Positions 13,954 to 61,901 of a stretch of 64,000 nucleotides of DNA are shown piece by piece. The DNA is from a virus. The position numbers were made by a program, and so were the translations under genes. The notes beneath the pieces were generated by a model, which made no database searches, was not told the origin of the DNA, and worked only from the letters and a program-made list of their open reading frames with translations. How positions within the stretch are numbered: position 1 is the stretch's first letter; every line of letters begins with the position of its first letter. The stretch lies in IMG/VR virus record IMGVR_UViG_3300021400_000020, positions 1 to 64,000 of that record; one strand, given 5' to 3'.

Positions 13954-13960
13954 CCAAAAG

Positions 13961-14139
13961 CCACCGTTCCCGAAAGTTCTGCTTTCGGGTTCCCCTCGCC
14001 ACCGTTCCCGAAAGTTCCGCTTTCGGGTTCCCCTCGCCACCATTCCCGAAAGTTCCGCTTTCGGGTTCCCCTCGCCACCATTCCCGAAAGTTCCGCTTTC
14101 GGTCATTAGTTTCTCAGTAACCGAAAGTTTCGCTTTCGG
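13961..14139 (+). repeat. Tandem hairpin-A array (38-bp unit x4 plus a boxed terminal copy)
   Basis: Units start at 13961, 13999, 14037 and 14075 (ccaccgttcccgaaagttccgctttcgggttcccctcg). A TTTCTCAGTA box and a fifth hairpin follow at 14121-14139. Confidence 0.95.
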
Positions 14140-14150: not shown

Positions 14151-14179
14151 TCCCATTAACCCCATCAACCCCATCACCC
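14151..14179 (+). repeat. (AACCCCATY)-type tract running into the start codon
   Basis: tcccattaaccccatcaaccccatcaccc followed directly by ATG at 14180. Confidence 0.85.
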
Positions 14180-18261: not shown

Positions 18262-18331
18262 ACCACCCTCCCATCCTCCCCATCAATCCCATCAATCCCA
18301 TCAACCCCACCAACCCCATTAACCCCATCCC
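18262..18331 (+). repeat. Longest CCCAT-type tract, running into ATG 18332
   Basis: ccatcaatcccatcaatcccatcaaccccaccaaccccattaaccccatcccATG. Confidence 0.85.
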
Positions 18332-31600: not shown

Positions 31601-33478
31601 GCATTCAACTTGCTCATTGCCATCCGCACCATTCAGCGCAAGAAGCAAAGAGACCTCTGCGCCACCTTCCTCAGCGGCACGACCATCACCAACTCGCTCA
31701 CCGAACTCTTCTGTCTCTTCAAGTATATGCGTCCTCGTGCTCTCGCTCGTCAGAACATCTTCTGCTTCGACGCATGGGCTGCCATCTTCACTCGCAAGAG
31801 TACGGAATATGAATTCTCCATCACCAACGAGATTCAGAGTAAGGAACGTTTCCGCTACTTCATCAAGGTTCCCGAGTTGGCTGCCTTCTACAACGAAATC
31901 ACGGACTACCGCACGGCAGAGGATGTAGGCATCGACCGACCTGTCAAGAAAGAAATCCTTCACAACATCGCACCGACCGAAGACCAGAAGGACTTCATCG
32001 AACGATTGATGAAATTCGCTAAGGGTGGCAATTCCTCACTCATCTATCGTCCATTCCTCACCGACAAGCAACAAAAGGCAAGGATGCTCATCGCTACCGA
32101 TGCAGCACGCAAGATGGCACTCGACATGCGCTTGATTGAGCCAACCATCTTCGAGGATGATCCGAACAACAAGGCATCACACTGCGCTCAGATGATAGCA
32201 CACTATTACCACAAGTACGAGGAACAGAAAGGAACTCAGTTCGTGTTTTCCGACCTCTCCACTTGGCACTCCAACGACGAGTGGAATATCTACAACGAAA
32301 TCCGTCACAAACTCGAAGTGGAGTATGGCATCCCACGCTCCGAAATCAAGTTCATCCAGGAATGCAAGGGTGAAGCGGCAAGAACGAAAGTCATTCAGCA
32401 GATGAACGAGGGAAAGGTTCGCGTACTCTTCGGCTCCACGTCCATGCTCGGCACGGGTGTCAACGCTCAGCAACGGGCAGTGGCAGTACACCACCTCGAC
32501 ACACCTTGGCGACCATCAGACCTCGAACAGCGAAACGGACGTGCTGTCCGCAAGGGAAACCTCGTGGCAAAACAGTTCGCTAACAATCAGGTGGACGTCA
32601 TCATCTACGCCGTGGAACGCTCACTCGACTCCTACAAATTTAACCTCCTCCACCTCAAGCAGACCTTCATCCACCAGCTGAAGAGTGGCACACTCGCCAC
32701 ACGAACCATCGACGAGGGCGCAATGGACGAGAAATCGGGAATGAACTTCTCGGAATACATGGCAATCCTCTCTGGCAACACCGACCTGTTGGACCGCGCA
32801 AAGCTCGAACGCAAGGTGGCTGCACTCATGGCGGAGCGCAAGACCTACCAGCGCACCATGCACGAGGCTGCCGTGGAGCAAATCACCAAGCAGGAGAAAC
32901 TCAACACCAACGAAGAGCGCATAGCATCCATGCAGCGAGACCTCGACATCGTGAATGCCATCCCTCCATGCAAGGAAGGTGAAACCATCCTCCGCATCGA
33001 CGGATGTAAGGAGACCGACGAGAAGTCAATGGGTGAGCGCATCATCAAGTACGTTGAGAAAGCCAACACCAACGGAGCCTACATCCCAATCGGTTCCTAC
33101 GGGCAGTTCCCTGTCGTAGTCAAGTCGGAAACCGTCACCAACTCAACAGGAGACACACACACCGTCACTCGTATGTTTGTTCGTGGCGAAACAACTTACT
33201 ACTGCACCAACAACGGAAACGTGCCTATATCTCCTATCTATGCAGCACGTCAGCCACAGCAGTCACTCACCAAGATTCCGGCACTCATTGCCAAACTGAC
33301 TGAGGAAAACGTTCAGCTGGCTCGATCCATCGAAGAACTCACTCCAATCATCAACAAGCCTTGGCATAAGGAAGACGAACTGAAGAAGCTGCGCAATGAA
33401 CTTGCACAACTCGACAAGAAAATCGCAAGCTCCCTCAATGCACAAGAGCGTGAGATGTCCACGGAGGAAGAGGACTAA
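28670..33478 (+). CDS. Fused N6-adenine DNA methyltransferase / SNF2-DEAD-type helicase (polyvalent anti-restriction-type protein)
   Basis: 1602 aa. AFYTP, EPSCGTGNF (SAM motif I) and SNIPF (motif IV variant). Helicase motifs DHEVGTGKT, VDESHQFKN, SGTTITNS, GTGVNAQ and LEQRNGRAVRKGN. Confidence 0.85.
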   Translation: MKRLDKNIEALKIAIEIANSPRTLNQKEVEALQAYSGFGGIDIAHLNNEDAETLQNVVETISQITNEPADTLMRSLKTSTLTAFYTPTVIPQAVSIAMQLAGLQPKRILEPSCGTGNFLQPFVQSYPQAATIAYEIDAVTALVTKALYPNTDLRIAGFQTISSSDLKTFDLTASNIPFADVKVFDPSFTSPVELDACRSLHSYFVMKGVSTLRNGGVLAFLTTQSYLNSLTHIEQVRHIFRNARLVSATRLPNNLFADTEVGTDLLILQKELGKEELTANEWLLTSSADNADGVVRNAYFECFPEHYICTSKEVKRGLYGKLQLVTKHEGGVNGIAADLFQQVSRDFATNINVALFNNNFAKLTASTSKTTTQKPTTEKTRHEDERLSLLQEILKAYDKLYAYEMEQQQENTEMRDELNRLYDQFVARYGQLNKPSNRSFIRSKNLSDLLALELQETAGIFVKADILHHPVAFDINEKSSFDNAHEALSASLNKFGKVNLRYMQDVSNLSEKEIFSELAGEIFFNPLKNEWEIKEMFISGDVISKADRIETIMPNVAKENERFAKESLEALRAATPTPILFADLDFNLGERWMSPEVYENFAMDFFNVHSDREKAISVVFSPDLDQYEVNLNIWGNERIYTEYAVVGENVTYDGIELFTHALHNTIPAIKKWNGEYDANGKKIMVRDEERIQFATSKIEEIRDGFCQWLFRQPVDFQLQLQDTYNRRFNACVRPAYNGSHQTFPDLDLDALGEKYGIRQIYQSQKDCIWMLKLNQGGICDHEVGTGKTLIMCMTAHEMHRLGIAHKPIIIALKANVAAIAETYQTAYPNARILYASEQDYSSANRADFFRRAKNNDYDCIIMSHEQFGKIPQSLEVQRDIIEDELRQLDDALYHFLETGGSDSFKIRKGLEKRRENLHAKLTKLEYDINHRKDDVIDFAMMGIDHIFVDESHQFKNLMFSTRHERVAGLGNPTGSQRAFNLLIAIRTIQRKKQRDLCATFLSGTTITNSLTELFCLFKYMRPRALARQNIFCFDAWAAIFTRKSTEYEFSITNEIQSKERFRYFIKVPELAAFYNEITDYRTAEDVGIDRPVKKEILHNIAPTEDQKDFIERLMKFAKGGNSSLIYRPFLTDKQQKARMLIATDAARKMALDMRLIEPTIFEDDPNNKASHCAQMIAHYYHKYEEQKGTQFVFSDLSTWHSNDEWNIYNEIRHKLEVEYGIPRSEIKFIQECKGEAARTKVIQQMNEGKVRVLFGSTSMLGTGVNAQQRAVAVHHLDTPWRPSDLEQRNGRAVRKGNLVAKQFANNQVDVIIYAVERSLDSYKFNLLHLKQTFIHQLKSGTLATRTIDEGAMDEKSGMNFSEYMAILSGNTDLLDRAKLERKVAALMAERKTYQRTMHEAAVEQITKQEKLNTNEERIASMQRDLDIVNAIPPCKEGETILRIDGCKETDEKSMGERIIKYVEKANTNGAYIPIGSYGQFPVVVKSETVTNSTGDTHTVTRMFVRGETTYYCTNNGNVPISPIYAARQPQQSLTKIPALIAKLTEENVQLARSIEELTPIINKPWHKEDELKKLRNELAQLDKKIASSLNAQEREMSTEEED

Positions 33479-35496: not shown

Positions 35497-35524
35497 ATAT
35501 TAACCCCATAAACCCCATTACCCC
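35497..35524 (+). repeat. CCCAT-type tract running into ATG 35525
   Basis: attaaccccataaaccccattaccccATG. Confidence 0.85.
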
Positions 35525-36956: not shown

Positions 36957-37121
36957 ATGATTCTACTACTTATCATCGGCTCCCTCGTCTCAGCCATTAT
37001 CGACATCCTCTTGAAGAGACGTAACGGCTTCACGACCGAAGAGCAAGCCCTGCTCCAGTCGAACAGCATCAACGAGGACGAACTCCGAGAACTCCGCAAG
37101 AACCTCTCCAACTTCAGGTAA
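36957..37121 (+). CDS. Small membrane protein
   Basis: 54 aa, MILLLIIGSLVSAIIDILLKRR... Flanked on both sides by complete repeat modules, like neighbouring genes. Confidence 0.5.
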   Translation: MILLLIIGSLVSAIIDILLKRRNGFTTEEQALLQSNSINEDELRELRKNLSNFR

Positions 37122-37125
37122 TCCA

Positions 37126-37224
37126 CCACCGTTCCCGAAAGTTCTGCTTTCGGGTATTGTCCTTCTCAGTACCCGAAAGTTCCGCTTTCGGTTCCCCATC
37201 AACCCCATTAACCCCATCAACCCC
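37126..37224 (+). repeat. Full module: hairpin A, box + hairpin A, (AACCCCATY)x3-4
   Basis: Hairpins at 37126-37154 and 37172-37191. At 37194-37224 there are four C4 runs separated by 5 nt, and the last unit forms CCCCATG. Confidence 0.95.
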
Positions 37225-37521
37225 ATGCTTACACTCAACGATATCCGCAAACTGCAAGGTCCAGACTCCGACATCGAATGGACTTGCACCTCCATCAGCG
37301 AGGAACTGTCAGAGACATGCAGGAACTTCTTCACCCTGCCCATCCTCCTCACACTCTTTTTCAAGTTCGAAGTAGAGTGGGAGGGACACCTGCTCGAAAT
37401 GCAGCAGAACGCATCCAACGTAAAGCTGCGACTCGACAACCGAACTGCCACCATCCCCGTCAACACCCGTGGCTACGTCACCTCCTCCGACTACGCTCAA
37501 GCATTTGCCTCCCTTGTCTAA
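37225..37521 (+). CDS. Hypothetical protein
   Basis: 98 aa. Confidence 0.6.
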   Translation: MLTLNDIRKLQGPDSDIEWTCTSISEELSETCRNFFTLPILLTLFFKFEVEWEGHLLEMQQNASNVKLRLDNRTATIPVNTRGYVTSSDYAQAFASLV

Positions 37522-37679: not shown

Positions 37680-40600
37680 CTATCCTCTACCTCTGCGTTG
37701 CATGAACCTTTCAGCCTTCTTCATCCGCTGACGAACTCCATTGTCGCCATACATGTCCACGTGGGCATCAATGCCAGCTTCCAACTGTGCATGAAGGGCT
37801 TTGAGCATCGCGGTATTCGCGGCAATCAAAGACTGCATACCTTCCATGCTGTCACCACCATCGTCCACCGCTGCACCCGCATCGGTCGTTGTGCCAATCT
37901 CGTCAAGATTGCCATCCGCATAAGTGGCAACACCTCGTTGCTTCCTCCGCTTCGGATAGTTAGGAATGACACCCGTCTTACTGAGCACTTGAATGTTGTC
38001 CCAGATTTCAGGGTAGTTCAGAACCAGCTTCTGCGTCGTTGGTCCATCAATCACGGCTTCAGGCATCTTCTCTGAGAAGATACCATAATGCGCACCACCT
38101 CGGTAAATCTTCGTCTGTAGCTTGTCCTCGCGCTTAGCCATGTAAGTCTCACCATCTGCACCCAACACAGGATAACGACCTTCAGCATAGGTGAGGAAAC
38201 CTGCTTTCAACTGTCCCGAACTGGCTCCCGTGGCAGCGGCTACCTCGCTCTTGCTCTTATTGATAGCACCTAAAGCGAGTCCTAACAGCGAACTCAAAGC
38301 AAGACTGATGGCAGCACCGATGGCGAGACCCAGCCAGCCTTTCTTGGCAACTTCTTGCGATGTTCCTTTTATGCCACCAACGGCTGCTTCTGCCGTGCTC
38401 GTACTGCCTTCCACTTCCAGCTCGGCAATCTTCTTAGCACCGTAGTCCGCTAAGCTCTTTTGACGAAGGGCTTGTATCTGCGTTTGCTTCTGCGCTTCAA
38501 GTTGCACCTCCATCTGGTCCACCGTGCGCTTGGTGCTGACTTGTATCAGATACTGCTGAACCAAGTTCTTGGTCGTCGTCAACACGTCGGTCAACAACTG
38601 CTTGGCGGCATTCTGGCGGTCTTCCTTGCTACCAAATACACCCTCGCCGAAACTCTGGGCAAAACTGCTCATCTCATTGCTGTATTCCTGCAAGGTGTCG
38701 AAGTCTCGTGCTGCACGCTCCACCATCTTCTGCATATACTTCTCTTGCAAATCGGTCATGGCAGTGTAGCTGTCACTCAGAGCGATATTCTGCTCCTCCT
38801 GCAACTCCCTCACCGACATCTGCAAGCTGGCGCGACGTGCCTCTAACGACTGAATCTCGTTCTCGGCTGCCTTGCGCTCTTCGTCGGACATAGAACTGCT
38901 GCGACGGGCATAGTCCAACTCCTTGGCGGCAAGACGGGCAGTCGTCTCGGCTTCCTGAGCCTTCATGTTCTCGATGTGCTTGTCTGTCTCCTGCTGCAAG
39001 AGGGCGATATAGGCTTTCTTGGCTTCCATCTGAGCATAAATCACGTCTATCTCAGCATTGGCGGAAACCAACTCACCACCAAAGCCCCAACTGCTGGCAT
39101 AGTTCGCGGCAGTCTGCCCCGACTGGCTTCTGCGCTCTCGGTCTTCGGCTAACTCGCTCTGAGTCCTGCCACCAAGTCCCTCTTCCCTGCGACCTGTCCA
39201 AATCTTGTCAGCCACACGGGTGTACTCCTTGGCTGCCTTGCGCTCGGCATCGATGATGTCGTCGGAATACTGCTGGAGCTTCTGAAGAAAGGCGGTCAAC
39301 TCGGCATCGGCATTGTCTCCTAAGCCCTCAAACCACACGTGGTAGATATTATCCTCCTTGCGCATGGCTTCTTTCAGCTGCTCGATGGTCAGGGAATAGG
39401 CATCCCTCGCCCATGTCTGCAACTGCGCCAGACGCTTCTCGGCTAATGCCTTCGTGCGCTCCTCGGCTTCTTCGTTGATACCGAAGATAAAACCGATGGT
39501 GTCCATCGACCGACGAAACTCTTCACGCACCTTGCCGGTGAAGTCACCCTCAAGAAGTATCTTCTCGATGGCATCCTTGTGCTTGTGAATAATCTCCTGT
39601 ATCTTGGTAGCATCCTCCTGCATCTTACGGGTGGCTCCGTCATACTCACTGCGCACATCATACATGAACTTCTGAATCAGGCTCCAATTCGCCTTTCTCA
39701 ACTTCAGTTCATTGTTCCAGTGCTCCACAAACTGCTTGCTCTCCGTGGCGTTGAGCTGCTTCGTCCACTGCTTTCTCAACTTCATCCTGTCAGCCAACCA
39801 GACAAGTTCATTCTCGTTGTTCCTGCGCTCGGCTTCCTCCTCGGTAATGGATTCCTCGGCTAACCGCTGCTTGATAAGGGCTTCACGCTCCTGGTAGTAG
39901 GCATCCAACTGCGCGAGAGTGGCATCACGCTCGTCTTTTGCCTCACGCTTCCATTTGTCCTTGTCACGATCGCTATTCTTGTCACTCTTATAGTTGCCTT
40001 GAATTGTGTCGTGGCGACGGTCAAGCTCTGCCTTCACCTTGTCATACTCTTCCTTCACACTTCTCTGAGCATCCTCCATGCTCATACTGTCATCAAGCAC
40101 TCCCTTCTTCACGAGGTCGGCATAAATCTTGCTGAATTGCTGCCCCACTTTCAAGCCGTTCTCAACCACGCTGTCCAGATAATCAGCATAGTTCTTCAAG
40201 GTCTCGGTATCCATTTTGTCAAGGGTGGTACCATTCTTTCCCCATACATTCGGATGGGCAATGTCCTCCCACTGATTACGTACCTGTCCTTGCAGATAGC
40301 GGTTGTTGTTCTCCACACGCTGAAGCACCTGACCGCTCATCCGTGGACCTGCCTGATGAGCAAGGTTCTGATAGTCGGCTGAGAGTTCAACGAGACGCTG
40401 GGCTAACTGCTGACGTTCTTTCTTGTCGGTACTGCCATTGAACTGCTTCTGCAAGTTCTGAATCTCCTTGAGGGTGCTATTCAGCATCTTCAAGGTGTCT
40501 TGGTAGCTACGGGTGACAGCTTCGTCCATCTGAGCACCTGTACTCTCTGCAAGACGCACACGCTCACCACGCTCCTTCACAAGGTCGTTCCACAACTTCT

Positions 40601-43600
40601 TGATGTCGTCGAAATTATCATAGATGGCATCCTTGGCAGTCTTGTTCAGCTTCAAGCCACTCTGCGTAATGAGATATTCCATCATGTTACCTTGACGCAT
40701 GTTCTGAACGCCCCAGTTGTCCTGGCTGTTTTTCAACTCCGACTTAGGAAGGGCATCCACCAGTCGCTGCATCGTCCTACGAAGCGCACTCTCAATGACA
40801 CTCGTATTGCGGTCGCCTACTTCCTCGGTCAACTTGTCGCGCACGCCCGTCCAACGGTTTTCACGAGTCGTTCCATACTTCTCTTCCAACAGCTTTTCAG
40901 CGGCTTCCTGCTTCTTCAGCACGATAGTTTCACGAATCTTGCTGTTCAGGAGGTCACGGGCTTGCGTCTGGTTCTTTAATAGGTTCGTCTCGCTAAGTTG
41001 AAAACCGAGGTAGCTCTGCATCACGCCATTTAAGTCGTTAATCGTCTTCTTCAACTCTCGATGGCTATCTACATTCTGCTCATTGTTCTTGGTGAGCTGG
41101 GAAATACGATCCGAGAGTTGACGACTCTTTGCAATCATCTCGTCCTCCTCCTTGGCGGCGGCAGCGATGGCTTCGTTAAACTCCTTTGTGGCTTCTACTC
41201 CCTTGCGGATGTACTGAATCAACTTAATGATACCATCAAGCACAGCGAATACAATAAAGGTCTTGAGTGCCGACTTCAATCCTTCTATCGCCACCTTGAA
41301 TGTCTGTGCAGCTCCTTGGGCTGCAACCAGCCGCTGCCAGAACTGCTTGAGGGCTCTGCTACCATGTTCCAAGGCTTGACGAAACTTCGTGCCGATATTC
41401 AACTGAAGGGAAATCAACGTAAGAATAAGCGCCTTGATGGTGGATTGCCACGAGACGATACTCTGAGAACCTTTCTGCATCCACGAAAGGAAATTGCCCA
41501 AGCCCTTGATGATACCATTGAAGAAGTCATAGATAACACTGTTGGTAAACAGCTCATTGAAGGCATTTCTCAGTCGGGCAAGACTACCTGCGGCATTATC
41601 CTGCACCTTCGTGAACTCACGCGACATCACACTCACATTGCCCATACCGACGGTGGCACTCTCATAACCCTCACTGGCATACTGCAAGGCATCACCCAAG
41701 GCAGCGGTATTTGTCGCCAGAGAACTGAGCGTCATCGCCAGTCCTGCACTCTGTTTCATGCGTCCTGTACCCACGGCATTCATCACCTCCTGCACCTTAC
41801 CTGCCCTGTCTTCGGCATCCTCAATCTTTTCCAACACGGCAACCAAGGCTTCATAGCTCTTGCCCTCGTCAATCAGACTTTGCAGATAGGTAGGAGCCAG
41901 CTCTGCGGCTTTCGCCATCTCGAAGGTGTGGTTCATCACGCCACGAATCAAGTGTATCAAGGCGGTACTGCCCTGCTCTGCACTGATACCGACGGCATCC
42001 AAACGTCCTCCCAAGGCAATCAGTTGGGGCATGGTCATCTTGGCTGTAGCACCCACTGCGCCAAGTCTTCTCACGTACTCCATGATACCCTGATAGCTGG
42101 CGGCGGTATTGTTACCGAGGTTCAGAATGGAACTACCTGCGGCATCCAAGGCTTCGCCAACATCGTCACCATGTTTTTTCGTCTCACCCAGCACGTCATT
42201 CACCTTTGCCAGTCCTGCAATGGCTTCCGCTCCACCAATATCTTCACCAAGGGTGGCATTGATACGTTCACCCATCTCCACGAAACCCTTCATGCCTTCA
42301 AGCCCATGCTCGGTATAGATACCTAACTTACCTGCTTGCGTGGCAAACTCCATCAGGTCGTGGGTGGTGGTGCGGGTGTCGAGGTCCTGCAAGCTCTTCG
42401 ACAAGCGGCGCACCTCCTCAGTCGTCATGTTCGTTACCTTCTGCACATTCGTCATCTGGTCACTGAGTTCCATGATATGCCCGAACTGCTTGCGTACCTC
42501 GTTCATGATGGCATTGAAGCCCAGATAGACGGCGATATAGCTTTTGAGTCGGTTGATGGCGCCACGAATACCACTTTGATGATGTGTCCAAGTTTCTGTC
42601 AACTCCTTCATCTGCTTGTCAATGGCTTTCATCTGCGCCGCCTTCGCTATATACTCGTCCTGCGTCAGTTCTGTATTGTTGATTTCGAATTTCAGACGCT
42701 TATACGCCATCCTCAATTCGTCGATATTCTTCACACCCTTTGGGTTTTTAAGAATTTCATCAAACCGCTCGGCAGTCAAGGTGGCAGTCTCCTGCAACAT
42801 GTCGAGACGCTGTAACTCGCGCTCAACGGCAATGATTTTTTCTTGTCCGTCCTTGCTCGTCACGTCAAGCGTACTCTTATAGGCACGGAGTCCATTGCGT
42901 AAGCGGTCGAGGTCGGTCAACGTACCCTTGAAGCCATTGCCGCTGTTCACATTCTCCAAGTATTTCTTGGCTTCCAGCACACGGTCATTGGCTTGCTGCA
43001 AGTCGGCAGTCATCTTGCGGATAGTTTCATCAACCCTCGATAAACCTCCCTCATTGGTGGTCTCCAAGTTCTCCCTGTACTGCTGCAAGAGCTTGATATT
43101 CTCCTGAATCTTGGTGGTACTCTGCGACCCCGATGTGTAGTTCATCGCTTGCTGGGCTTTGTCTTCCAACGAGGTCTGCGCACGATGCTGGATGGTGTCG
43201 TTGATGGCTTCCAACTGGTTCTTCACCCGCTCAAGCACCCGCTCTTCCATGTTTCCGGCATCCACCATGCCCTGCAAGAAACGTTGCACATCCGACAACT
43301 GCTTGTCGGTGGCGTTGCCGATGTCGGCAAGGACATTTCCTCCACCTGTCTTCATCCAGTTACTGAACTTAACGCTGTTGATGCGCTTCTCATAAATCGC
43401 CCATTGCGATTGGGTCTTGGCAAGGGTCTGCTGCTCCTGCTTCAGCACCTCAATCACACGCAAATTCGTGGCAACACTGTTGTTGGAGGCGTTCTCGCTG
43501 GTTTGCCAGACAGATTGAAAACCTGCCTTCAGTTCGTTCAAGCGGTTCTTGATGAGCTGCATCACCTCCGACTTACGGGCAAACTCCTCGGCGGAAACGC

Positions 43601-44957
43601 CCGACTTCTGAACCTCGAAACTCAGACGCTCGTAGGCTTGCTCCAACTCCTTCACACTGCGCCAACTCCTTGGGTCGCCGACAATCTCACGGTAATGCTC
43701 GGCGGTCAGCGAAGCGGTCTTTTCCAGCACCGTCAGACGTTGGAACTCCTCTTCCACACGGGCAATCTCCTTCACACCATCGTCCGTGGTGGCATCGATG
43801 GTTTTGCGGTATTCGGTTAAGCCCGTCTTCAGCCGCTCAATGTCCTTCACACTGTTGGCAAAACCCGAACCACCCTCGGCAATACTGCTAATATGCCCTT
43901 TGGCTTCCAAAATGCGCTCGTTGGCTTGCTGCAAGTCGGCGGTCATCTTGCGGATGGTCTCGTCCACACGCATCAAGCTACTGGCGTCAGTCGTTGCCAG
44001 ACTCTCCCTGTACTGCTGCAAGAGTTTGATGCTCTCCTGCAACTGGGTACTGTTCAAACCTGTGGTTGGAGGAGCACCTGCGGCACTCAATGCCTGACGT
44101 GCGGCGGTAGCTTGCTCATAGCTCTGCATGATACCACCAGCCCGCTCGCTCAGCGAGGTCTGAGCACGCTGCTGAATGGTGTCGTTCACACTTTGCAAAC
44201 TGGCTTTGACCTTTTCAAGCACCTTGGCTTCCAGATTGCCTGCATCCACCATACCCTGCAAGAAACGCTGCATATCCGACAGCTGCTTGTCGGTGGCGGC
44301 ACTCAGGTCCTTCAAGAGGGTGTCACCACCTGCCTTCTTGAAATTCTCAAAGGTGATGGCGTTGATGCGTTGGGTAATCTTCGTCCACTCCTTGCTGTTC
44401 TTCGACAAGACGTCGCGCTGCTCGGTCAAGACACGCTTCAGACGCTCGTTTTCATCAAGACTACCCTTCGTATAGTTGCTGCTCTGCTTCCAAGCATCGG
44501 CAAATCCAGCCTTCAATTCCTTAATGCGCACCTCTAACTGGGAAATATGGTTGGCTAACCGACGGAAAGACTCCATGTCCTCGTCGGTCATCGTACTCTT
44601 GCCAAATTTGCGCATCTCGTTCCTCGCCTGACTTAATGCCGTGGTCAGGTCGCGCACCGACATGCCCGTCATATTCGTCAGACTCTCTTGCAGACGGTTT
44701 AGATTCTCACGGCTCTGCTTGATAAGGCGGTTCTGCGTCTTGAGTTGTTCCTCCGTTTGTTTCATCTGCACCTGTAAGTCCTTTCCCTTAGTTCCTGCCT
44801 TCTCTGCTTCGCTAAGGGACTCGTACTGCGCTTGGAGACTCTTCAGTTCTTCCTCCAACTTATGAGCGGTATCGGTCAGCAACTTAATCTGCTTGTTAGA
44901 TTCCTTCGTCGTAACATGCACCTGCACATTACTCACATAACTTGATATTCCTGGCAT
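37680..44957 (-). CDS. Tail tape measure protein
   Basis: 2425 aa, mostly coiled-coil. Central ...VTNMTTEEVRRLSKSLQDL...AGKLGI... core, hydrophobic segments, and position within a virion gene block. Confidence 0.85.
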   Translation of the reverse strand: MPGISSYVSNVQVHVTTKESNKQIKLLTDTAHKLEEELKSLQAQYESLSEAEKAGTKGKDLQVQMKQTEEQLKTQNRLIKQSRENLNRLQESLTNMTGMSVRDLTTALSQARNEMRKFGKSTMTDEDMESFRRLANHISQLEVRIKELKAGFADAWKQSSNYTKGSLDENERLKRVLTEQRDVLSKNSKEWTKITQRINAITFENFKKAGGDTLLKDLSAATDKQLSDMQRFLQGMVDAGNLEAKVLEKVKASLQSVNDTIQQRAQTSLSERAGGIMQSYEQATAARQALSAAGAPPTTGLNSTQLQESIKLLQQYRESLATTDASSLMRVDETIRKMTADLQQANERILEAKGHISSIAEGGSGFANSVKDIERLKTGLTEYRKTIDATTDDGVKEIARVEEEFQRLTVLEKTASLTAEHYREIVGDPRSWRSVKELEQAYERLSFEVQKSGVSAEEFARKSEVMQLIKNRLNELKAGFQSVWQTSENASNNSVATNLRVIEVLKQEQQTLAKTQSQWAIYEKRINSVKFSNWMKTGGGNVLADIGNATDKQLSDVQRFLQGMVDAGNMEERVLERVKNQLEAINDTIQHRAQTSLEDKAQQAMNYTSGSQSTTKIQENIKLLQQYRENLETTNEGGLSRVDETIRKMTADLQQANDRVLEAKKYLENVNSGNGFKGTLTDLDRLRNGLRAYKSTLDVTSKDGQEKIIAVERELQRLDMLQETATLTAERFDEILKNPKGVKNIDELRMAYKRLKFEINNTELTQDEYIAKAAQMKAIDKQMKELTETWTHHQSGIRGAINRLKSYIAVYLGFNAIMNEVRKQFGHIMELSDQMTNVQKVTNMTTEEVRRLSKSLQDLDTRTTTHDLMEFATQAGKLGIYTEHGLEGMKGFVEMGERINATLGEDIGGAEAIAGLAKVNDVLGETKKHGDDVGEALDAAGSSILNLGNNTAASYQGIMEYVRRLGAVGATAKMTMPQLIALGGRLDAVGISAEQGSTALIHLIRGVMNHTFEMAKAAELAPTYLQSLIDEGKSYEALVAVLEKIEDAEDRAGKVQEVMNAVGTGRMKQSAGLAMTLSSLATNTAALGDALQYASEGYESATVGMGNVSVMSREFTKVQDNAAGSLARLRNAFNELFTNSVIYDFFNGIIKGLGNFLSWMQKGSQSIVSWQSTIKALILTLISLQLNIGTKFRQALEHGSRALKQFWQRLVAAQGAAQTFKVAIEGLKSALKTFIVFAVLDGIIKLIQYIRKGVEATKEFNEAIAAAAKEEDEMIAKSRQLSDRISQLTKNNEQNVDSHRELKKTINDLNGVMQSYLGFQLSETNLLKNQTQARDLLNSKIRETIVLKKQEAAEKLLEEKYGTTRENRWTGVRDKLTEEVGDRNTSVIESALRRTMQRLVDALPKSELKNSQDNWGVQNMRQGNMMEYLITQSGLKLNKTAKDAIYDNFDDIKKLWNDLVKERGERVRLAESTGAQMDEAVTRSYQDTLKMLNSTLKEIQNLQKQFNGSTDKKERQQLAQRLVELSADYQNLAHQAGPRMSGQVLQRVENNNRYLQGQVRNQWEDIAHPNVWGKNGTTLDKMDTETLKNYADYLDSVVENGLKVGQQFSKIYADLVKKGVLDDSMSMEDAQRSVKEEYDKVKAELDRRHDTIQGNYKSDKNSDRDKDKWKREAKDERDATLAQLDAYYQEREALIKQRLAEESITEEEAERRNNENELVWLADRMKLRKQWTKQLNATESKQFVEHWNNELKLRKANWSLIQKFMYDVRSEYDGATRKMQEDATKIQEIIHKHKDAIEKILLEGDFTGKVREEFRRSMDTIGFIFGINEEAEERTKALAEKRLAQLQTWARDAYSLTIEQLKEAMRKEDNIYHVWFEGLGDNADAELTAFLQKLQQYSDDIIDAERKAAKEYTRVADKIWTGRREEGLGGRTQSELAEDRERRSQSGQTAANYASSWGFGGELVSANAEIDVIYAQMEAKKAYIALLQQETDKHIENMKAQEAETTARLAAKELDYARRSSSMSDEERKAAENEIQSLEARRASLQMSVRELQEEQNIALSDSYTAMTDLQEKYMQKMVERAARDFDTLQEYSNEMSSFAQSFGEGVFGSKEDRQNAAKQLLTDVLTTTKNLVQQYLIQVSTKRTVDQMEVQLEAQKQTQIQALRQKSLADYGAKKIAELEVEGSTSTAEAAVGGIKGTSQEVAKKGWLGLAIGAAISLALSSLLGLALGAINKSKSEVAAATGASSGQLKAGFLTYAEGRYPVLGADGETYMAKREDKLQTKIYRGGAHYGIFSEKMPEAVIDGPTTQKLVLNYPEIWDNIQVLSKTGVIPNYPKRRKQRGVATYADGNLDEIGTTTDAGAAVDDGGDSMEGMQSLIAANTAMLKALHAQLEAGIDAHVDMYGDNGVRQRMKKAERFMQRRGRG
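42530..44520 (-). repeat. About 1-kb in-frame tandem duplication inside the tape measure gene
   Basis: ELKAGF...LSDMQRFLQGMVDAGNLE...IKLLQQYRESL...ETIRKMTADLQQANERILEAK is repeated about 335 aa later as ELKAGF...LSDVQRFLQGMVDAGNME...IKLLQQYRENL...ETIRKMTADLQQANDRVLEAK. Boundaries are approximate. Confidence 0.8.
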
Positions 44958-44972
44958 GGCTATATATTGTTA

Positions 44973-45021
44973 TTTTCACTTTGCACTCTTCACTTTTCAC
45001 TTCTCACTTTTCCCTTCTCAC
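44973..45021 (-). repeat. Heptad leader repeat (GTGARAA)x7 upstream of the tape measure start
   Basis: Minus strand reads gtgagaa gggaaaa gtgagaa gtgaaaa gtgaaga gtgcaaa gtgaaaa. It ends 15 nt before the ATG. Confidence 0.85.
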
Positions 45022-45545
45022 GTCCAGTTCCTCGTCGTCTGACGCTTGTAGCCATTGCTACGGAGGAACTGTCCTTGTGTGGTGGCATTCGCCACACTCT
45101 GCATGATGACAACACTGCCCGTATAAGCATACTGCCGAGCAAGCCTATCCATCAGCATCCTGGCGTGAAGACGAATTTCACTCATCATAAACGGCTTCGC
45201 CATACGAGGCTTGCCGTCAGGACGAGGGATAGGTCTGAGCGGCTTACCCGTCGTCAGCTGGGGAATAGTCATGTATTTCATGCCCTTGCCAACCGCCATC
45301 TCCACATACTGAGCATAGTTCATGTAATAAAACTGAATCAGGGCTTCGTCACCATTCGCATTGTTGTGGATGTCGGCATGGATGCTGCGCTCCAAGTCAC
45401 CCGAAAACTTTTTGCCGTAGGGACTAATCTCTAAGTCCTGCATGTTCTGAAGAATCTGCTCCGTCGTTTCAAGGGCGAAATAATGAATGCGTTGCTGAAC
45501 CTTTTTGTTCATCAACGCAAATTCATCTATCACTTGCTTTGCCAT
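45018..45545 (-). CDS. Hypothetical virion protein, possibly HK97 gp10-like (start moved to ATG 45545)
   Basis: 175 aa. ...GDLERSIHADI...YYMNYAQYVEMAVGKG pattern. A -7 box lies 18 nt upstream. Confidence 0.5.
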   Translation of the reverse strand: MAKQVIDEFALMNKKVQQRIHYFALETTEQILQNMQDLEISPYGKKFSGDLERSIHADIHNNANGDEALIQFYYMNYAQYVEMAVGKGMKYMTIPQLTTGKPLRPIPRPDGKPRMAKPFMMSEIRLHARMLMDRLARQYAYTGSVVIMQSVANATTQGQFLRSNGYKRQTTRNWT

Positions 45546-45562
45546 CGTAATTCCTTTTCTCG

Positions 45563-45570
45563 CAAAGTTA
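45563..45570 (-). promoter_or_regulatory. -7 box TAACTTTG (minus strand)
   Basis: caaagtta on the + strand, 18 nt upstream of ATG 45545. Confidence 0.55.
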
Positions 45571-45630
45571 GTGATAGACAACCAAAATCATAAGGACAAA
45601 TTTCTTAGTCATCCCTGTCTTTCTCCGTAT

Positions 45631-46012
45631 GCGAAAGTTCCGCTTTCGCCTTTCATCCTCCCCCGAAAGTTCTGCTTTCGGTCCTTAGTTTCTCCGTATC
45701 TGAAAGCTCTGCTTTCAGCCATCAAAGAAACAAGGTTTCCACGCTCTCGTGAAAACCTTGAACTTTTGAGTCTCAATTCACGCAAAAAAATTGAAACTCC
45801 ATCTTTAAATCATGGCAAAGATACGACTTTCATCGTTCCCCTCAAAATCTTTCCGTCAATTTCTGCACCACCGTCCACGAAAGTTCCTGCCACCGTTCCC
45901 GAAAGTTCCTGCCACCGTTCCCGAAAGTTCCGCTTTCGGGTAAAAAGAAAGTTCCGCTTTCGGTTTAGCTTTCAGCCCTTGCTTTCTCCGTACCCGAAAG
46001 TTCCGCTTTCGG
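45631..46012 (+). repeat. Dense pile-up of hairpin-A elements and fragments
   Basis: Copies at 45631-45649 (GCGAAAG variant), 45660-45681, 45700-45718 (CTGAAAG variant), 45912-45940, 45946-45963 (degenerate) and 45993-46012. Half-units of 22 bp at 45868-45889 and 45890-45911. Confidence 0.9.
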
Positions 46013-46014
46013 CT

Positions 46015-46560
46015 TCAGTCCTCCTCTCCGAACAGCATCCCGTTCACATACTCATCCTCCACCACGCAGATATTGTACTGTTCCGGCAGATGAATCGTCA
46101 GATACACTGCCACCCATCCGTCATAAAACGGAGCTTGCGTCTTGTACTCTATATCACTAAAGTCCATCCTGCGAAGGAACTTCGGACAGCGTTGCTTATC
46201 ATGCTGCAACTTGTTCAGCCAGTTCAGGAAATTGCGCATGTGTTCCTTGGCTTCTTTCTTCGCATCCCTATTCGCGTGACCGTCACCTGCGTCCGTACTT
46301 CGCACACAGAAGTGGATGGTAAAACTCTGCTTGTCGTAGGCAAACTGCTCTATCTCGCCCTCCAGGTTACTCTCCATGATGACACACGGACTCATCCGCA
46401 CGTTCATTCCCTGCATAAAGTTCTGCAGGTCCCAGTAACTGTTGCAGAAATAAAACCTACGACGTTCGGAATTCTTGGCGAAGTTATGTTGCATCTTCTT
46501 ATAGATGCTACACCAGAACTCTACTAACTGAGGATAGTCACTGACTTCACTTAATTTCAT
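46015..46560 (-). CDS. Hypothetical virion-block protein (start moved to ATG 46560)
   Basis: 181 aa. Confidence 0.65.
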   Translation of the reverse strand: MKLSEVSDYPQLVEFWCSIYKKMQHNFAKNSERRRFYFCNSYWDLQNFMQGMNVRMSPCVIMESNLEGEIEQFAYDKQSFTIHFCVRSTDAGDGHANRDAKKEAKEHMRNFLNWLNKLQHDKQRCPKFLRRMDFSDIEYKTQAPFYDGWVAVYLTIHLPEQYNICVVEDEYVNGMLFGEED

Positions 46561-46734
46561 GTTTTCGTTATTGTTTTCGTTATCGTTCAAGAAATCCCTT
46601 CAAATCCTTTAAATCCTTGATTTTTATCTACGGAGTCTCGGAGTAAAGGAATTTCCTGTTTCCGTTTTCGTTATCGTTATCGTCCAAGAAATCCTTTCAA
46701 ATCCTTAAAATCCCTGACCTCTTTAAATCCCTGA
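46561..46734 (+). repeat. Dispersed repeat, copy 2 (see 1-125)
   Basis: Two AAATCCTT-rich blocks (46588-46626 and 46685-46734), each preceded by (CGTTWTC)-type short repeats. Confidence 0.7.
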
Positions 46735-47280
46735 TGGGGCTTTCACATGACAAAAAGCATGTAGCTTCCTCATGCTGCGCTCATACAAGTTCGTGTCACG
46801 CGAAAGCAAAAGCATCTCGCTACTCCTGCTTCGACTTTGATTAAGAGAACCAGTCAACAAGAGGTTCCCTTTTTCGTTTCCGATACACAGACAACGGAAA
46901 GCAATGTCCCTTTCGGCTATCGTGACAACGGAATAGCGGGCATGATGAGCGAGGTACTTCTCGATACGCTCACGGCTCTTGCGAGGCTGGACAATGATAT
47001 TCAGTTTCCGAATCAGCCAGTCACTCTTGCCATCATCCATGACAGCCATCCTACCGAGCAAGCTATGAAGCATGTCTAACGTACTGTCTTCTATGTGGAC
47101 CAAGGCAACGGTGACTTCCGAACCAGGCAACCACCACACCATCTGACCGAGGAATTCGGACAACTGGGTTTCACTGTTTGTAAAGAATACCTCGGTACCA
47201 CTCTTAGGCATATTGCCCCAAATCGCACTAATCTCGGTCTTGTAACAGCATGGCTCCACCTGCATCACATTCTCTGACAT
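46723..47280 (-). CDS. Hypothetical protein
   Basis: 185 aa. Confidence 0.65.
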   Translation of the reverse strand: MSENVMQVEPCCYKTEISAIWGNMPKSGTEVFFTNSETQLSEFLGQMVWWLPGSEVTVALVHIEDSTLDMLHSLLGRMAVMDDGKSDWLIRKLNIIVQPRKSRERIEKYLAHHARYSVVTIAERDIAFRCLCIGNEKGNLLLTGSLNQSRSRSSEMLLLSRDTNLYERSMRKLHAFCHVKAPSGI

Positions 47281-47295
47281 CGGCTCCCTCCTTTC

Positions 47296-48417
47296 TTAAA
47301 ATCGTCTAACACCCTTCACGAAAGGAGCAAAGACACTGTTGCATGGGTTCTTAGGGTCGTAGTCATTGGAAGGAGGACAGTGCTTAGGGCATTGCTGCTG
47401 TCTGTTCAGACGCTTCTGCTCTTCTTCTGGCAACGCATTCCCGTCCTCGTCATACCACAAGCCGTCATCACCGAGGGTGGGAGGTGCTGGCACATAGAGA
47501 GGAGAGGTTTTCACGTAAGGGCGGAAAGAATCCTGATGTGCGACGATACACCTCTTGGCTAAGGCAAGCTGCATGTCTCCACGCTCCACACTGTCCTTGC
47601 GACCCTCGCCCGAAAGGGATTCAGCATAGCGCACCAACGCACGACGTAGGTAATTCTTTGCTTTCTTGCGCCAGATATAATGTTCCACCTGACTTGCTGC
47701 ATCCTCACCATCATTCCCATCCGACCCATTATCCCCATCATGCCACTCATGAACAAAAGCAGAAAACAACTCCTCACCGATGGCTGGTTCCAGATATACG
47801 CTCTGAGCCTCCTGAAGATTCGGGAACATCTCAATGAACTGCTTCCTGCCATCCTTCAGAGTCGTGTAGTTTCTGAGTTCATGGGCTGTCGTAAATAGCA
47901 AGTCAGCCTTATAGTAGAAGAACTCGCTTTCCTTCCATTCTGTCTGATACAACGGTTCTTTAGACTCCGCATCCAACTCTAAAAGGGTCAGCAAATTGTC
48001 CTCGCTTTGCCGCGCTTTACGCCAAGCATCACGCTCGAAGCGGTCCAAGGCTTTCTGCTCTGCCGATTCGTAGTAGTCTGCAGACATCTGATTAAAACCA
48101 CCTCCCTCATTGAAACTCAACGCATACACACCTGCATTGTCTGCCAACGTGTAGTAGAGGGCGATGCGCTGACACTGGCGGAGAATCCTGATATTCAAGT
48201 CTCTGTTATTGAATGTGGCGTTTGTCAAGCCTGTGTCCTGCAAGTTCTCCACAAGACTGTCATACTCGGTGGCGAGCTTATCCAACAAGGCATCACCCAA
48301 GAGGGGCGTGAGGCGGACATTCACTTCATTGTCGATGTCACTAATCAAGCGGTCGAGGTTCGTCCACTTACTCTGAGGATAGATAGCTTCTATCTCTTTG
48401 ATATTACAGAAAAACAT
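47296..48417 (-). CDS. Hypothetical virion-block protein
   Basis: 373 aa, preceded by the heptad leader repeat. Confidence 0.7.
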   Translation of the reverse strand: MFFCNIKEIEAIYPQSKWTNLDRLISDIDNEVNVRLTPLLGDALLDKLATEYDSLVENLQDTGLTNATFNNRDLNIRILRQCQRIALYYTLADNAGVYALSFNEGGGFNQMSADYYESAEQKALDRFERDAWRKARQSEDNLLTLLELDAESKEPLYQTEWKESEFFYYKADLLFTTAHELRNYTTLKDGRKQFIEMFPNLQEAQSVYLEPAIGEELFSAFVHEWHDGDNGSDGNDGEDAASQVEHYIWRKKAKNYLRRALVRYAESLSGEGRKDSVERGDMQLALAKRCIVAHQDSFRPYVKTSPLYVPAPPTLGDDGLWYDEDGNALPEEEQKRLNRQQQCPKHCPPSNDYDPKNPCNSVFAPFVKGVRRF

Positions 48418-48428
48418 ATTTCATTCTA

Positions 48429-48463
48429 TTTTTCACTTTTCACTCTTCACTTTTCACTTTTTA
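48429..48463 (-). repeat. Heptad leader repeat (GTGARAA)x4
   Basis: Minus strand reads gtgaaaa gtgaaga gtgaaaa gtgaaaa, about 12 nt upstream of ATG 48417. Confidence 0.85.
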
Positions 48464-50227
48464 TTTGCTCTCCGTTGATACAACCCCCGTCTTGCTGTTG
48501 TCCAGCGTCGTGAGGTTCTGCTGTTCTATCACCCATTTCAAGTGCTTGTCACAGTCATTGAAGGTGGAAATCATGTCCAAGAGCCATAGGTAACGACGCT
48601 GACTTGGACTCACCTGCTGCTCCTTCAGCAAATGCAACTCACGCTGGAACGTGCCTCCCTTACCAGAACTACCAGGACGTGAGCCGATCAGTTCGGGATG
48701 AACACCCATTGCAAAGAAGATGATACTGCTCACTTCCTCCAACTCGGCTTTTAAGTCCTTGGCGTTCTGAGGTTGTGGCACATCTACAATCTCAATCGAC
48801 TTCACGAGCGTCTTCTCATCTTGGCTCAGATAGGCATCCAATGCAACGGTCTTACCGTTATTGTCGCGCTTCTTCAGGAATTGGTTGATGTCGTTAATCA
48901 GACCCGTCTTGATAGCATCCTGCTCGTCCTCGTTCGTCGCTCCCATCTGGTCGTAGAGTTTCTGAAGGTAGTTGAGATTGATGTAGATGATTTTTCCCCA
49001 CATCGTAGAGTTGTTCCTCGCCGCTGCCTTGTCGAACATCATTGTATAGGCATAGTTATACACATAGCTCAGGAAGATACTCCACCACATAGGCTGTGGA
49101 TAGTAAGGGCGGAGTATGTTCGCACGTTTCAGAGGGATGCAGAACCATGCCGTGCGCTCATTCACCTTCTGACGTTGTTGACGCGATACCCACGAATTCA
49201 ATTCTTCAATGGCACTGTCGGAATTGATGACAGGGTAGGCGATGACCTCGCCAAATTGCAAGTCGGGAGTGCATTCCTTGCGCCAACGCTCGGCATAGAA
49301 GACATTCTCAATCTTCAAGTCCTTGCTCATCTCCTCGTAACGGGTGCAGACACAAGGCAGAAAACCGAGTTTCACAATCTTAGGATTCCACTTGCCGCTC
49401 TTACCTCGCGACAAGCCAATCGTAGGAAAGGCGATGTTCATGTGGGCATCGTCAGTACAATACTTCTCATAATGCTCACAGAGATTGTTGTTCTCAAGGA
49501 ACTCACGAAGCCATTGACTTGTGCTTTCCCATTTTTCATAGTCTTTGACAAGCTGATCGATTTCCTTGTCAAGGTACTCTTTGAGACGAGTATGCTTGCC
49601 ACCCTTACGCGGACCTTCCTCGCCACCGTTCCCGAAAATTTGGTTTTCGGGTAAAAGGTTACCGTTCCCGAAGGTTCTGCCTTCGGATTCCCCGTTCACC
49701 CCATCATCCTGCGACTCATCATCATCCAAGGCATCTCGTCGTGAAGATAACTCTATAAGTCTATTCAGAATCAGCGTACCAGCAAGAGGGTAGGGGATGC
49801 TCTCTTCCTTGACCGTCCCTCCAGCGTATCGTGCCCATACGTAAGTGGGTTTGGGACCATGCCCTTGCGTGAGGTTGATGATGTATTCCATAGCAGCAGC
49901 AGTGTAGGGGAGGGCTGCCACTAACTGCGCAATCCTGTTCGGCTGGTCGTTGGCACTGCCCCAGGCGATATACTTGCCTTTGACGGTCTTGCTATCCACA
50001 CTGATTGCCTGTATTTGCTTACCGTCGGGAATGAGGTTGCTGCCCGTACCAAGCATCGACTTGTTCGCCCATTCCGCGCAGCCACTCACCACCGAAGGGT
50101 CGTTATTCTTGCTGTTGCCAAACCCTGTCACCGTGATGGGAATATAACCACGTTTCTGCAAGCTCTGAATCTTGCTGAAGGCTTTATCAACGGTTTTTTT
50201 AAACTGATTCTTCTGATTCTTTGCCAT
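48461..50227 (-). CDS. Portal-like protein (tentative) with embedded repeat module
   Basis: 588 aa, first gene of the minus-strand virion block, with a -7 box 25 nt upstream. The portal call rests on size and position only. Residues ...GRTFGNGNLLPENQIFGNGG... are encoded by two hairpin-A copies. Confidence 0.45.
   Translation of the reverse strand: MAKNQKNQFKKTVDKAFSKIQSLQKRGYIPITVTGFGNSKNNDPSVVSGCAEWANKSMLGTGSNLIPDGKQIQAISVDSKTVKGKYIAWGSANDQPNRIAQLVAALPYTAAAMEYIINLTQGHGPKPTYVWARYAGGTVKEESIPYPLAGTLILNRLIELSSRRDALDDDESQDDGVNGESEGRTFGNGNLLPENQIFGNGGEEGPRKGGKHTRLKEYLDKEIDQLVKDYEKWESTSQWLREFLENNNLCEHYEKYCTDDAHMNIAFPTIGLSRGKSGKWNPKIVKLGFLPCVCTRYEEMSKDLKIENVFYAERWRKECTPDLQFGEVIAYPVINSDSAIEELNSWVSRQQRQKVNERTAWFCIPLKRANILRPYYPQPMWWSIFLSYVYNYAYTMMFDKAAARNNSTMWGKIIYINLNYLQKLYDQMGATNEDEQDAIKTGLINDINQFLKKRDNNGKTVALDAYLSQDEKTLVKSIEIVDVPQPQNAKDLKAELEEVSSIIFFAMGVHPELIGSRPGSSGKGGTFQRELHLLKEQQVSPSQRRYLWLLDMISTFNDCDKHLKWVIEQQNLTTLDNSKTGVVSTESK
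49623..49686 (+). repeat. Two hairpin-A variants inside the portal-like CDS
   Basis: 49623-49651 (CCCGAAAA-tttgg-TTTTCGGG) and 49660-49686 (CCGAAGG-ttctg-CCTTCGG). Followed by caccccatcatcc. Confidence 0.9.
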
Positions 50228-57661: not shown

Positions 57662-57703
57662 CCCACTCATAAAAACCATTAACCCCATAAACCCCAAAAA
57701 CAA

Positions 57704-58972: not shown

Positions 58973-59362
58973 ATGGAAATAACAGGCTTGACTATAGGTG
59001 ATAAGCTGCTGCTGAATGGACACCCTCACACCATTCAAGGACTGCAAATGAAGGATGGCAACTGGCTGTTCTTCTCGAAGGAACTGCAAACATGGTGCTC
59101 TGTTATGGATGCCTTCCCCATCTTCATCACACAGACATTCTTGGCTAAGAACTTCGACGAGAAAAACGGAGGATTCAAGTACGGCATATTCGAGGATTAC
59201 TTCGACCTCTCCATCGAGGAATACAACGACGGCACTTACTCCATCGAATACCACATCACGGAAATGTCACTGCCTGATACCGTCATCTCCAACGTCTGTT
59301 ATGTCCACGAACTCCAGCACGCCCTCAACCTCTTCGGACTCTCCAAGGAACTGGAACTTTAA
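58973..59362 (+). CDS. Hypothetical protein, paralog of the previous gene
   Basis: 129 aa. Confidence 0.6.
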   Translation: MEITGLTIGDKLLLNGHPHTIQGLQMKDGNWLFFSKELQTWCSVMDAFPIFITQTFLAKNFDEKNGGFKYGIFEDYFDLSIEEYNDGTYSIEYHITEMSLPDTVISNVCYVHELQHALNLFGLSKELEL

Positions 59363-59365
59363 AAG

Positions 59366-59480
59366 CCACCGTTCCTGCCACCGTTCCCAAAAGTTTCGCT
59401 TTCGGGTTCCCCTCTCCACCGTCCCTGAAACTTCTGCTTTCAGTCCTTCGTTTCTCCGTACCTCTCGGCTCAGCCGAGAG
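59366..59480 (+). repeat. Hairpin A half-copy + 2 copies + box + hairpin C
   Basis: Half-copy at 59366-59377, hairpin A at 59378-59406 and 59416-59443, and hairpin C at 59462-59480. Confidence 0.9.
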
Positions 59481-59520
59481 CTTTCTCACCAAACCCATTA
59501 ACCCCATCAACCAAAAAACT

Positions 59521-60094: not shown

Positions 60095-60113
60095 TCAAAA
60101 CAACCCATCAACA

Positions 60114-61875: not shown

Positions 61876-61901
61876 TTCACCCCATTATCCCCGTCAACCC
61901 A

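Follow-up and report, generated by a model that had tools for sequence, protein, structure and literature searches.

That palindromic repeats can be carried within genes is already known, both from intragenic REPs and from the Rickettsia palindromic elements (RPE), the latter being cited alongside the former as a further intragenic case (PMC3733652). The CGTC-tagged REPs are palindromes of 20–40 bp, present in many, mostly intergenic copies, in which an unpaired CGTC (or TGTC/CCTC) tag abuts a stem of 8–9 bp that opens with two A-T pairs, with a loop of 4–5 nt and a 3-nt CCA tail (PMC3733652). They are arranged mostly as head-to-head dimers, and an association with a RAYT (Y1/HUH) transposase belongs to the GTAG REPs only (PMC3733652). 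Some units or dimers of the GTAG- and CGTC-tagged REPs lie in frame within genes, to which they add ~20–30 residues, and these inserts have been argued to be neutral on the grounds that flexible linkers or loops accommodate them (Di Nocera et al. 2013, PMC3733652).

The repeat described here occurs in a 64-kb stretch of DNA (the window, which denotes the whole stretch analysed) and has much in common with these elements, being a short, tagged palindrome with an 8-bp stem and a 5-nt loop, of which there are many, mostly intergenic copies, with some in frame. There are also differences. Of the 32 copies, 14 have CCGTT as the tag and six have CGTC, and the tag is preceded by GCCAC; the stem starts with CCC/GGG rather than A-T; CCA is found 5' of the tag instead of at the far end; the units are arranged head-to-tail on one strand, not as head-to-head dimers; the insert in the ORF is a composite of a half unit, two units and 9-mers; and the carrier is a phage/plasmid-like genome. 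Moreover, no RAYT-type (Y1/HUH) transposase domain is found among the 41 largest other ORFs of the 64-kb window, the element as a whole being ~97 kb. The Bacteroidales repeat is therefore REP-like in its behaviour and is not a demonstrated member of the REP family.

With the RPE the repeat shares the property of a selfish palindrome which sits in frame in a functional, conserved gene and is translated as extra peptide. The RPE that Ogata and colleagues are said to have described in 2000 are reportedly single elements of ~100–150 bp, each with one long palindromic structure, from an intracellular bacterium, whereas the present units are of 36 nt, each has its own small hairpin, their number is polymorphic, and they lie antisense in a gene of a phage genome. 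A further comparison is offered by the vMITEs, which are MITEs common to viruses and their hosts (bioRxiv 10.1101/2024.01.18.576219). The likeness here is that of small non-autonomous repeats in Bacteroidota genomes and in their viruses; however, neither terminal inverted repeats nor a target-site duplication is visible at the ends of the portal repeat tract, which are fuzzy. A literature search on the tag sequence and on Bacteroidales intragenic palindromes returned nothing specific, and that no published description of this Bacteroidales family was found is weak evidence that it is undescribed.

Copies of the repeat in the window

The window comes from a metagenome contig of an uncultured, ~97-kb element with a phage-plasmid-like gene set, which includes, beside the portal-like gene, a tape-measure protein, ParA, DnaB, PcfJ, an ArdC-like protein and methylases. 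Metagenomes in which this phage is present include ERZ28612966 and SRR17284455. The repeat has the order tag GCCACCGTTCC, hairpin (8-bp stem, 5-nt loop) and CCCATYAAC 9-mers; each unit has a 21-nt hairpin and a 10–12-nt tag. There are 32 hairpin copies in the window, all on the plus strand, with the consensus CCCGAAAG-TTCYG-CTTTCGGG and with one of two leaders, GCCACCGTYC or TTTCTCMGTA; directly 5' of the stem, 14 copies have CGTT, six have CGTC and 12 have other bases. A 23-nt pattern, GTTCCCGAANNNTNNNNNTTCGG, has 26 matches in the window at up to two mismatches, where 0.16 are expected. Six of the eight stem pairs show changes on both sides across the window copies, a number reached in none of 500 shuffles, and the hairpin is therefore a conserved feature of the repeat family. 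Two of these double changes are those of the copies in the portal-like ORF.

On the gene annotation that the source provides for the overlapping contig, 30 of the 32 hairpin copies are intergenic, and only the pair at 49622–49693 lies inside a real gene. The intergenic arrays run head-to-tail with a period of 37–40 nt, mostly 38, and often have tandem CCCATYAAC 9-mers on their 3' side, which reach the ATG of a plus-strand gene. The repeat precedes plus-strand genes at 13 of 16 loci. Since minus-strand gene blocks hold three of the 16 loci (p ~0.125 for those alone), the strand bias of the 32 copies weighs less than is apparent. The common strand of all 32 is, nevertheless, an observation that a purely random passenger model, taken by itself, leaves unexplained.

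The consensus unit is without a stop codon in all six frames, and 29 units hold 21 stops against ~70 expected, a figure to be read in the light of the copies being non-independent and of a random 34-mer being stop-free ~9% of the time. The stop-free property is accordingly not strong evidence of adaptation. In practical terms, gene callers will lengthen ORFs through such stop-free arrays or call spurious ones in them.

The repeat tract in the portal-like gene

The gene that contains the pair encodes a protein for which Pfam, PHROG and PDB-sequence searches gave no match, and nothing similar at the nucleotide level turned up when the gene region was compared with 50,697 phage records. The AlphaFold model of the protein is only of moderate quality (pLDDT 57.8, pTM 0.54) and retrieves with Foldseek almost exclusively phage portals, at E values from 7e-4 in the PDB, and, in BFVD, PBSX-type portals at E values of 1e-12 to 3e-7, such that the top matches in both libraries point to a portal fold for the 588-aa product. 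The gene and the parts of the repeat tract within it are as follows.

48461–50227, minus strand: portal-like gene, a single ORF of 588 aa
49598–49621, plus strand: degenerate half unit of 24 nt, GCCACCCTTACGCGGACCTTCCTC, made up of the leader GCCACCC and a decayed 5' half stem; residues 203–210, EEGPRKGG
49622–49657, plus strand: hairpin unit 1 of 36 nt, GCCACCGTTCCCGAAAATTTGGTTTTCGGGTAAAAG, leader GCCACCGTTC; residues 191–202, LLPENQIFGNGG
49631–49651, plus strand: hairpin of unit 1, arms CCCGAAAA/TTTTCGGG
49658–49693, plus strand: hairpin unit 2 of 36 nt, GTTACCGTTCCCGAAGGTTCTGCCTTCGGATTCCCC, leader GTTACCGTTC; residues 179–190, GESEGRTFGNGN
49668–49686, plus strand: hairpin of unit 2, arms CCGAAGG/CCTTCGG
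49688–49729, plus strand: tract of 9-mers of the CCCATYAAC type, which read antisense as (D/N)(D/N)G; residues ~167–180, LDDDESQDDGVNGE
from 49694, plus strand: sequence 3' of unit 2, GTTCACCCCATCATCCTGCGACTCATCATCATCC
49697–49709, plus strand: CACCCCATCATCC, 3' of unit 2

The repeat-derived tract therefore spans about 49598–49729 and residues ~168–210, and comprises the 24-nt half unit, the two 36-nt hairpin units and the 9-mer tract, all of them antisense to the gene. The codon register is exact, with the two full units and the half unit each coinciding with whole codons (residues 179–190, 191–202 and 203–210). The repeat accounts for some 43 of the 62 linker residues, in a Gly/Asn/Asp/Glu-rich sequence that includes the stretch TFGNGNLLPENQIFGNGG.

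A preliminary description of this DNA had placed a complete repeat module, with two copies of its hairpin A, at 49623–49700, translated without loss of frame as part of the peptide ...ESEGRTFGNGNLLPENQIFGNGGEEG... within a 588-aa ORF at 48461–50227 on the minus strand. The ORF and the peptide are as given there, and the core of that account, an intergenic repeat module in frame in a single portal-like gene, is supported by what follows. Its span does contain both hairpins, but CACCCCATCATCC lies beyond its end and the tract is longer on both sides; nor is the module strictly complete, as the second hairpin type of the intergenic modules, that with the leader TTTCTCMGTA, is missing. The acidic, low-complexity flank that it noted is present and is itself repeat, namely the antisense 9-mers.

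The relationship between the tract and the intergenic copies is evident at the nucleotide level. The pattern GTTCCCGAANNNTNNNNNTTCGG matches both ORF units with no mismatches, and a sensitive blastn search shows homology with intergenic modules over about 49586–49710. The pair aligns to the intergenic array at 13994–14071 with 77% identity over 78 nt (E = 9e-12), and a 2-nt gap in this alignment turns the 38-nt period into one of 36 nt; the start-to-start distance of the ORF units is thus 36 nt as against 37–40 nt, mostly 38, in intergenic arrays. The stretch 49623–49709 aligns to the intergenic module at 37126–37213, 9-mers included, while 49586–49656 matches the intergenic half-unit array at 45877–45945 (77% over 71 nt), where the half unit is 22 nt long and becomes 24 nt in the gene copy through two 1-nt insertions. 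Compared with the consensus CCCGAAAG/CTTTCGGG, both stems in the ORF carry changes on both sides, as had been reported earlier, from G-C to A-T in unit 1 and from A-T to G-C in unit 2, and both hairpins fold in the plus sense, at −10.3 and −12.5 kcal/mol. That both stems stay fully paired through such two-sided changes runs counter to a passenger reading of the tract and could hint at a structural constraint.

The protein has 241 homologues at ~40–49% identity, each of them one protein of 480–651 aa. Between query residues E159 and E222 their linker ranges from 19 to 88 aa, with a median of 55.5 and with 62 in the query; the linker sequences are unrelated between homologues, conserved blocks lie on both sides, and the tract occupies alignment columns in which some homologues have almost no residues. 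In the model, pLDDT falls below 50 at residues 174–196 and 199–209, between helices predicted at 146–172 and 211–246. The tract fills, in other words, a hypervariable linker that is predicted to be disordered. A surface loop had been suggested earlier; a loop agrees with the model, which places the tract in a low-pLDDT linker between helices, while exposure on the surface of the assembled portal would be conjecture.

Allelic variation and recurrence

The 90% cluster of the portal-like protein has 14 members, of 588, 586 and 574 aa, and within it an allele series can be followed among proteins that are at least 96% identical. The 574-aa allele (L091) is without exactly one 36-nt unit, unit 1, the joint lying inside the shared sequence ACCGTTCCCGAA, and its remaining hairpin is decayed, GCC having become GAT, with folding energies of −6.1 and −4.6 kcal/mol as compared with about −12 for the consensus. 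In the 9-mer tract, the 586-aa alleles are set apart by a 6-nt indel, which leaves perfect CCCCATCAT tandems. Three further alleles (L092–L094) have a consensus-type hairpin 1, CCCAAAAGTTCTGCTTTCGGG, translated as PESRTF, which differs from that of the L004 allele at five clustered positions in genes that are otherwise 97–99% identical; such clustering in near-identical genes is the mark of a short conversion tract rather than of compensatory mutations acquired one by one. Two substitutions in the population, G49634A and G49685A, produce G.U pairs when the stems are read as mRNA, stem changes of this kind being seen in three alleles, and some natural alleles have A.C mismatches in the plus-sense stems.

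All indels in the portal gene among these strains are multiples of three, and no other part of the protein is as prone to indels as the linker. The intergenic modules of the same strains vary in a like manner, with differences of 60 nt, of about one unit and of about 113 nt, not all of which are multiples of three; leaders are swapped or co-mutated in tandem copies. Every sampled strain keeps at least one unit and no empty-site allele was found among them; no relatives at 50–95% identity to the portal-like protein were found, and 54 IMG/VR loci of portal relatives hold no copy of the repeat family, so that there is no near empty-site relative.

The same linker has been colonised a second time in a distant homologue. 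The portal P0100 (locus L095, 39% identity) has, in its homologous linker, three 18-nt half units and one full unit, GCCACCGTTCCCGAAGCATTTCCTTCGG, in the sense orientation, with the peptide AAVSESVTVPKSAAVPEAATVPEAFPS; some ~115 nt upstream of this gene, an intergenic copy has the identical hairpin. Relative to their genes, the units here and those in the window run in opposite directions, and the insertion in P0100 is therefore independent. A protease/scaffold-like ORF at the same locus contains two more units, read as TTVSEASPS twice. The ‘PIN/PIT’ linker peptides of the homologues P0012–P0018 were also considered as sense-frame 9-mers and were rejected, the DNA of P0014 (L096) being without CCCATYAAC.

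Beyond phages, when genomes, one per species, were searched for exact matches, the unit turned up in Prevotella, Bacteroides, Phocaeicola, Parabacteroides and Leyella, which ties the ~97-kb element to Bacteroidales hosts of the Prevotella/Bacteroides type. In a Prevotella cobalamin operon, in-frame units (ATVPE...) are found in CobQ, a CobD-like gene, CbiB and an ABC ATPase; the stems covary in sequence, and two MAGs differ in the number of units, by 60 nt in CobQ and by 17 aa in the CobD-like gene.

Origin of the in-frame copy

Taken with the homology, the register and the allele series, the tract is probably a passenger, a copy of the repeat that is interspersed through this same genome, lying antisense and in frame in a permissive linker of the portal. 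An intergenic module would have been copied into this linker by ectopic recombination or template switching, after which it would be translated as ~43 flexible residues with no need of a function of its own. Its persistence could be put down to a unit that is free of stops and to a flexible peptide that is benign in the frame used, with survival presumably restricted to lengths that are multiples of three, as with the 24, 36 and 6 nt encountered here compared with the 22 and 37–40 nt of the intergenic copies. The number of units may then change when the repeated tags slip or recombine unequally, and short gene-conversion tracts may swap hairpin sequence in blocks. Among the possibilities raised by the preliminary description was a MITE-like insertion tolerated in a loop, of which the tolerated insertion fits the data, whereas ‘MITE-like’ is a loose term for units that look REP-like. 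The locus provides an unusually clean natural series from selfish repeat to protein sequence, running from intergenic arrays through the translated linker and its one- and two-unit alleles to an independent insertion in the equivalent linker of a distant portal.

An exapted linker, the second of those possibilities, also fits the evidence as far as the hypervariable, low-pLDDT linker, the variation in unit number and the independent colonisation are concerned. In its stronger form, which we consider unlikely, selection would favour a long, variable and flexible portal linker, for reasons such as assembly geometry or the diversification of a surface seen by portal-sensing host defences, and the repeats of the genome would be no more than a convenient source of it. 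Such selection would accord with the colonisation of the homologous linker in two lineages, with the long linker of most homologues (median 55.5 aa) and with its indel-prone nature among close strains; yet 19–20 residues suffice in some homologues, the linker sequences are unrelated between lineages, and recurrence is equally expected of a site that is simply permissive.

A similarly low probability attaches to the hairpins having kept a cis-acting role within the ORF, whether in RNA, as a site in the portal mRNA for pausing, cleavage or stability or as a terminator or processing site of an antisense, plus-strand transcript, or in DNA, as a protein-binding or priming site wherever the repeat occurs. 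The single strand shared by all copies could be taken in this sense, as could the stems maintained by two-sided changes in the window copies and in the family at large (six of eight pairs, none of 500 shuffles) and the G.U pairs that G49634A and G49685A give in the mRNA sense. However, only two independent substitutions stand behind the G.U argument (p ~0.25), and the ‘compensatory’ variant comes as a 5-nt block that looks like conversion rather than selection. The ORF copies, moreover, are antisense relative to the orientation found at 13 of 16 loci, before plus-strand genes, and have no T tract, and natural alleles exist with one unit fewer, with a badly weakened hairpin (L091) or with A.C mismatches in the plus sense. 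A terminator scan did not pick out the ORF hairpins, and terminator-like sites in this region were no more numerous than expected from shuffles; in Rfam there was no family match, neither for the whole window at the gathering score nor for a module at E ≤ 10, save for noise, the latter comprising two snoRNA matches at E values of 3–7. The internal regulatory or processing site that had been put forward earlier consequently finds no support, and the portal repeat does not reveal a new regulatory mechanism.

It is very improbable that the units mimic a host CRISPR repeat, as solitary units acting as RNA anti-CRISPRs do, with the ORF copy as a by-product. The arrangement of GTTC, hairpin and ~8-nt tail bears what we take to be a superficial resemblance to type I-E/I-F CRISPR repeats, and the units do form spacer-less tandem arrays, but the family is also in frame in bacterial housekeeping genes with freely varying stems, no Rfam CRISPR-DR model matches, and two units spaced 26–50 nt apart, as in a CRISPR-like array, have no match in 241 million metagenome records. 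Convergent low complexity, or an ORF that is really two genes or a pseudogene, is just as hard to credit, given that only the composition of the peptide speaks for convergence and that against it stand a nucleotide homology (E = 9e-12) covering tag, stem, loop and 9-mers and an FGNG peptide absent from the other homologues (0 of 119), while the homologues are all single ORFs, both flanks are conserved and the population indels are all multiples of three. The two observations that the preliminary description had named as counting against it, the peptide in homologous portals without the hairpin signature and an ORF that is really two genes, are thus both contradicted.

It is conceivable, though for the present doubtful, that the tag GCCACCGTTCC and its freely covarying 7–8-bp hairpin represent an undescribed family of stop-free mini-elements that is spread across the Bacteroidales and mobile between hosts, conjugative elements and phages. 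Such elements would, on the same tentative footing, survive in frame preferentially in disordered linkers, as in the phage portal and protease/scaffold and in the host CobQ and CbiB. If so, they would recurrently, and to this day, supply proteins with new linker sequence, and their spread might perhaps proceed by a strand-specific, single-stranded-DNA mechanism.

Repeat sequence within genes

In two MAG contigs from Prevotella/Bacteroidaceae (L089, at 4300-6650, and L072), bacterial genes of the cobalamin pathway, namely CobQ, a CobD-like gene, CbiB and an ABC ATPase, carry tag-plus-hairpin units like those of the window, in frame and in the sense orientation. The peptides read from these units include ATVPEA... 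and TTVPDAFPSG..., and the number of units in the genes differs between the two MAGs. The hairpin element family of the window is also present in a distantly related phage (locus L095, 6730-6812 and 13769-13830), where it occupies intergenic regions and two linkers, that of the portal, in the sense orientation, and that of a protease/scaffold-like ORF of 560 aa.

Within the window, the DUF6712 gene that neighbours the portal-like ORF (47296-48417, minus strand) contains three in-phase 9-mer-like units at 47705-47737, CCCATCCGA, CCCATTATC and CCCATCATG, the antisense reading of which is DGDNGSDGNDG; among homologues this region is variable, yet similar in length. Further tandem repeats, with periods of 51, 24, 18 and 12 nt, are found at 6251-6515, 21784-21940, 22241-22384 and 14487-14583, several of these arrays falling within ORFs, and the copy number of the 51-nt array differs from that in strain L059.

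Arrays at gene starts and in gene calls

At eight sites in the window, tandem CCCATYAAC 9-mers directly abut the ATG of plus-strand genes.

9-mers reaching an ATG, plus strand
14152-14178
18279-18323
35505-35522
37195-37221
57675-57692
59494-59511
60104-60112
61881-61898

Since the 9-mers run straight into the start codon, the sequence suggests a putative C/A-rich leader which would replace the Shine-Dalgarno site. The repeat arrays are stop-free and are traversed by long spurious ORFs in four regions (13930-14106, 36990-37454, 45505-46527 and 59055-59501); an additional 36 aa in the methylase gene call of one strain is probably due to an ORF running through such an array.

At 45866-45963 the leader and the 5' half stem recur in tandem as half units of 22 nt, and the 3' half hairpin is duplicated, forms which look like slippage intermediates of the hairpin repeat. 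Adjoining this repeat cluster, between two tail-region genes, is a strong terminator-like hairpin on the minus strand (45760-45731), whose 13-bp stem leads into a T-rich tail.

Probable mobility, and orientation

Many Bacteroidales genera, together with one Oscillibacter-labelled MAG, share a stretch holding one hairpin unit with identical flanks (loci L060, L061, L063, L065, L066, L068-L070, L078, L080, L081, L083-L085 and L090). The stretch is presumably a single mobile element that has been transferred widely. The window itself looks like part of a phage-plasmid. Its tape-measure and portal genes adjoin the following.

Genes accompanying the tape-measure and portal genes
699-1484, ParA
11988-13526, DnaB helicase
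23473-25176, PcfJ-like
25451-26662, ArdC-like/zincin
28670-33478, methylase-helicase, 1602 aa
55633-57303, C5 methylase

Over the whole window (1-64000), the plus strand carries every one of the 32 hairpin units and almost every 9-mer array, and GC skew is negative nearly throughout, including the minus-strand structural block (37680-50227).
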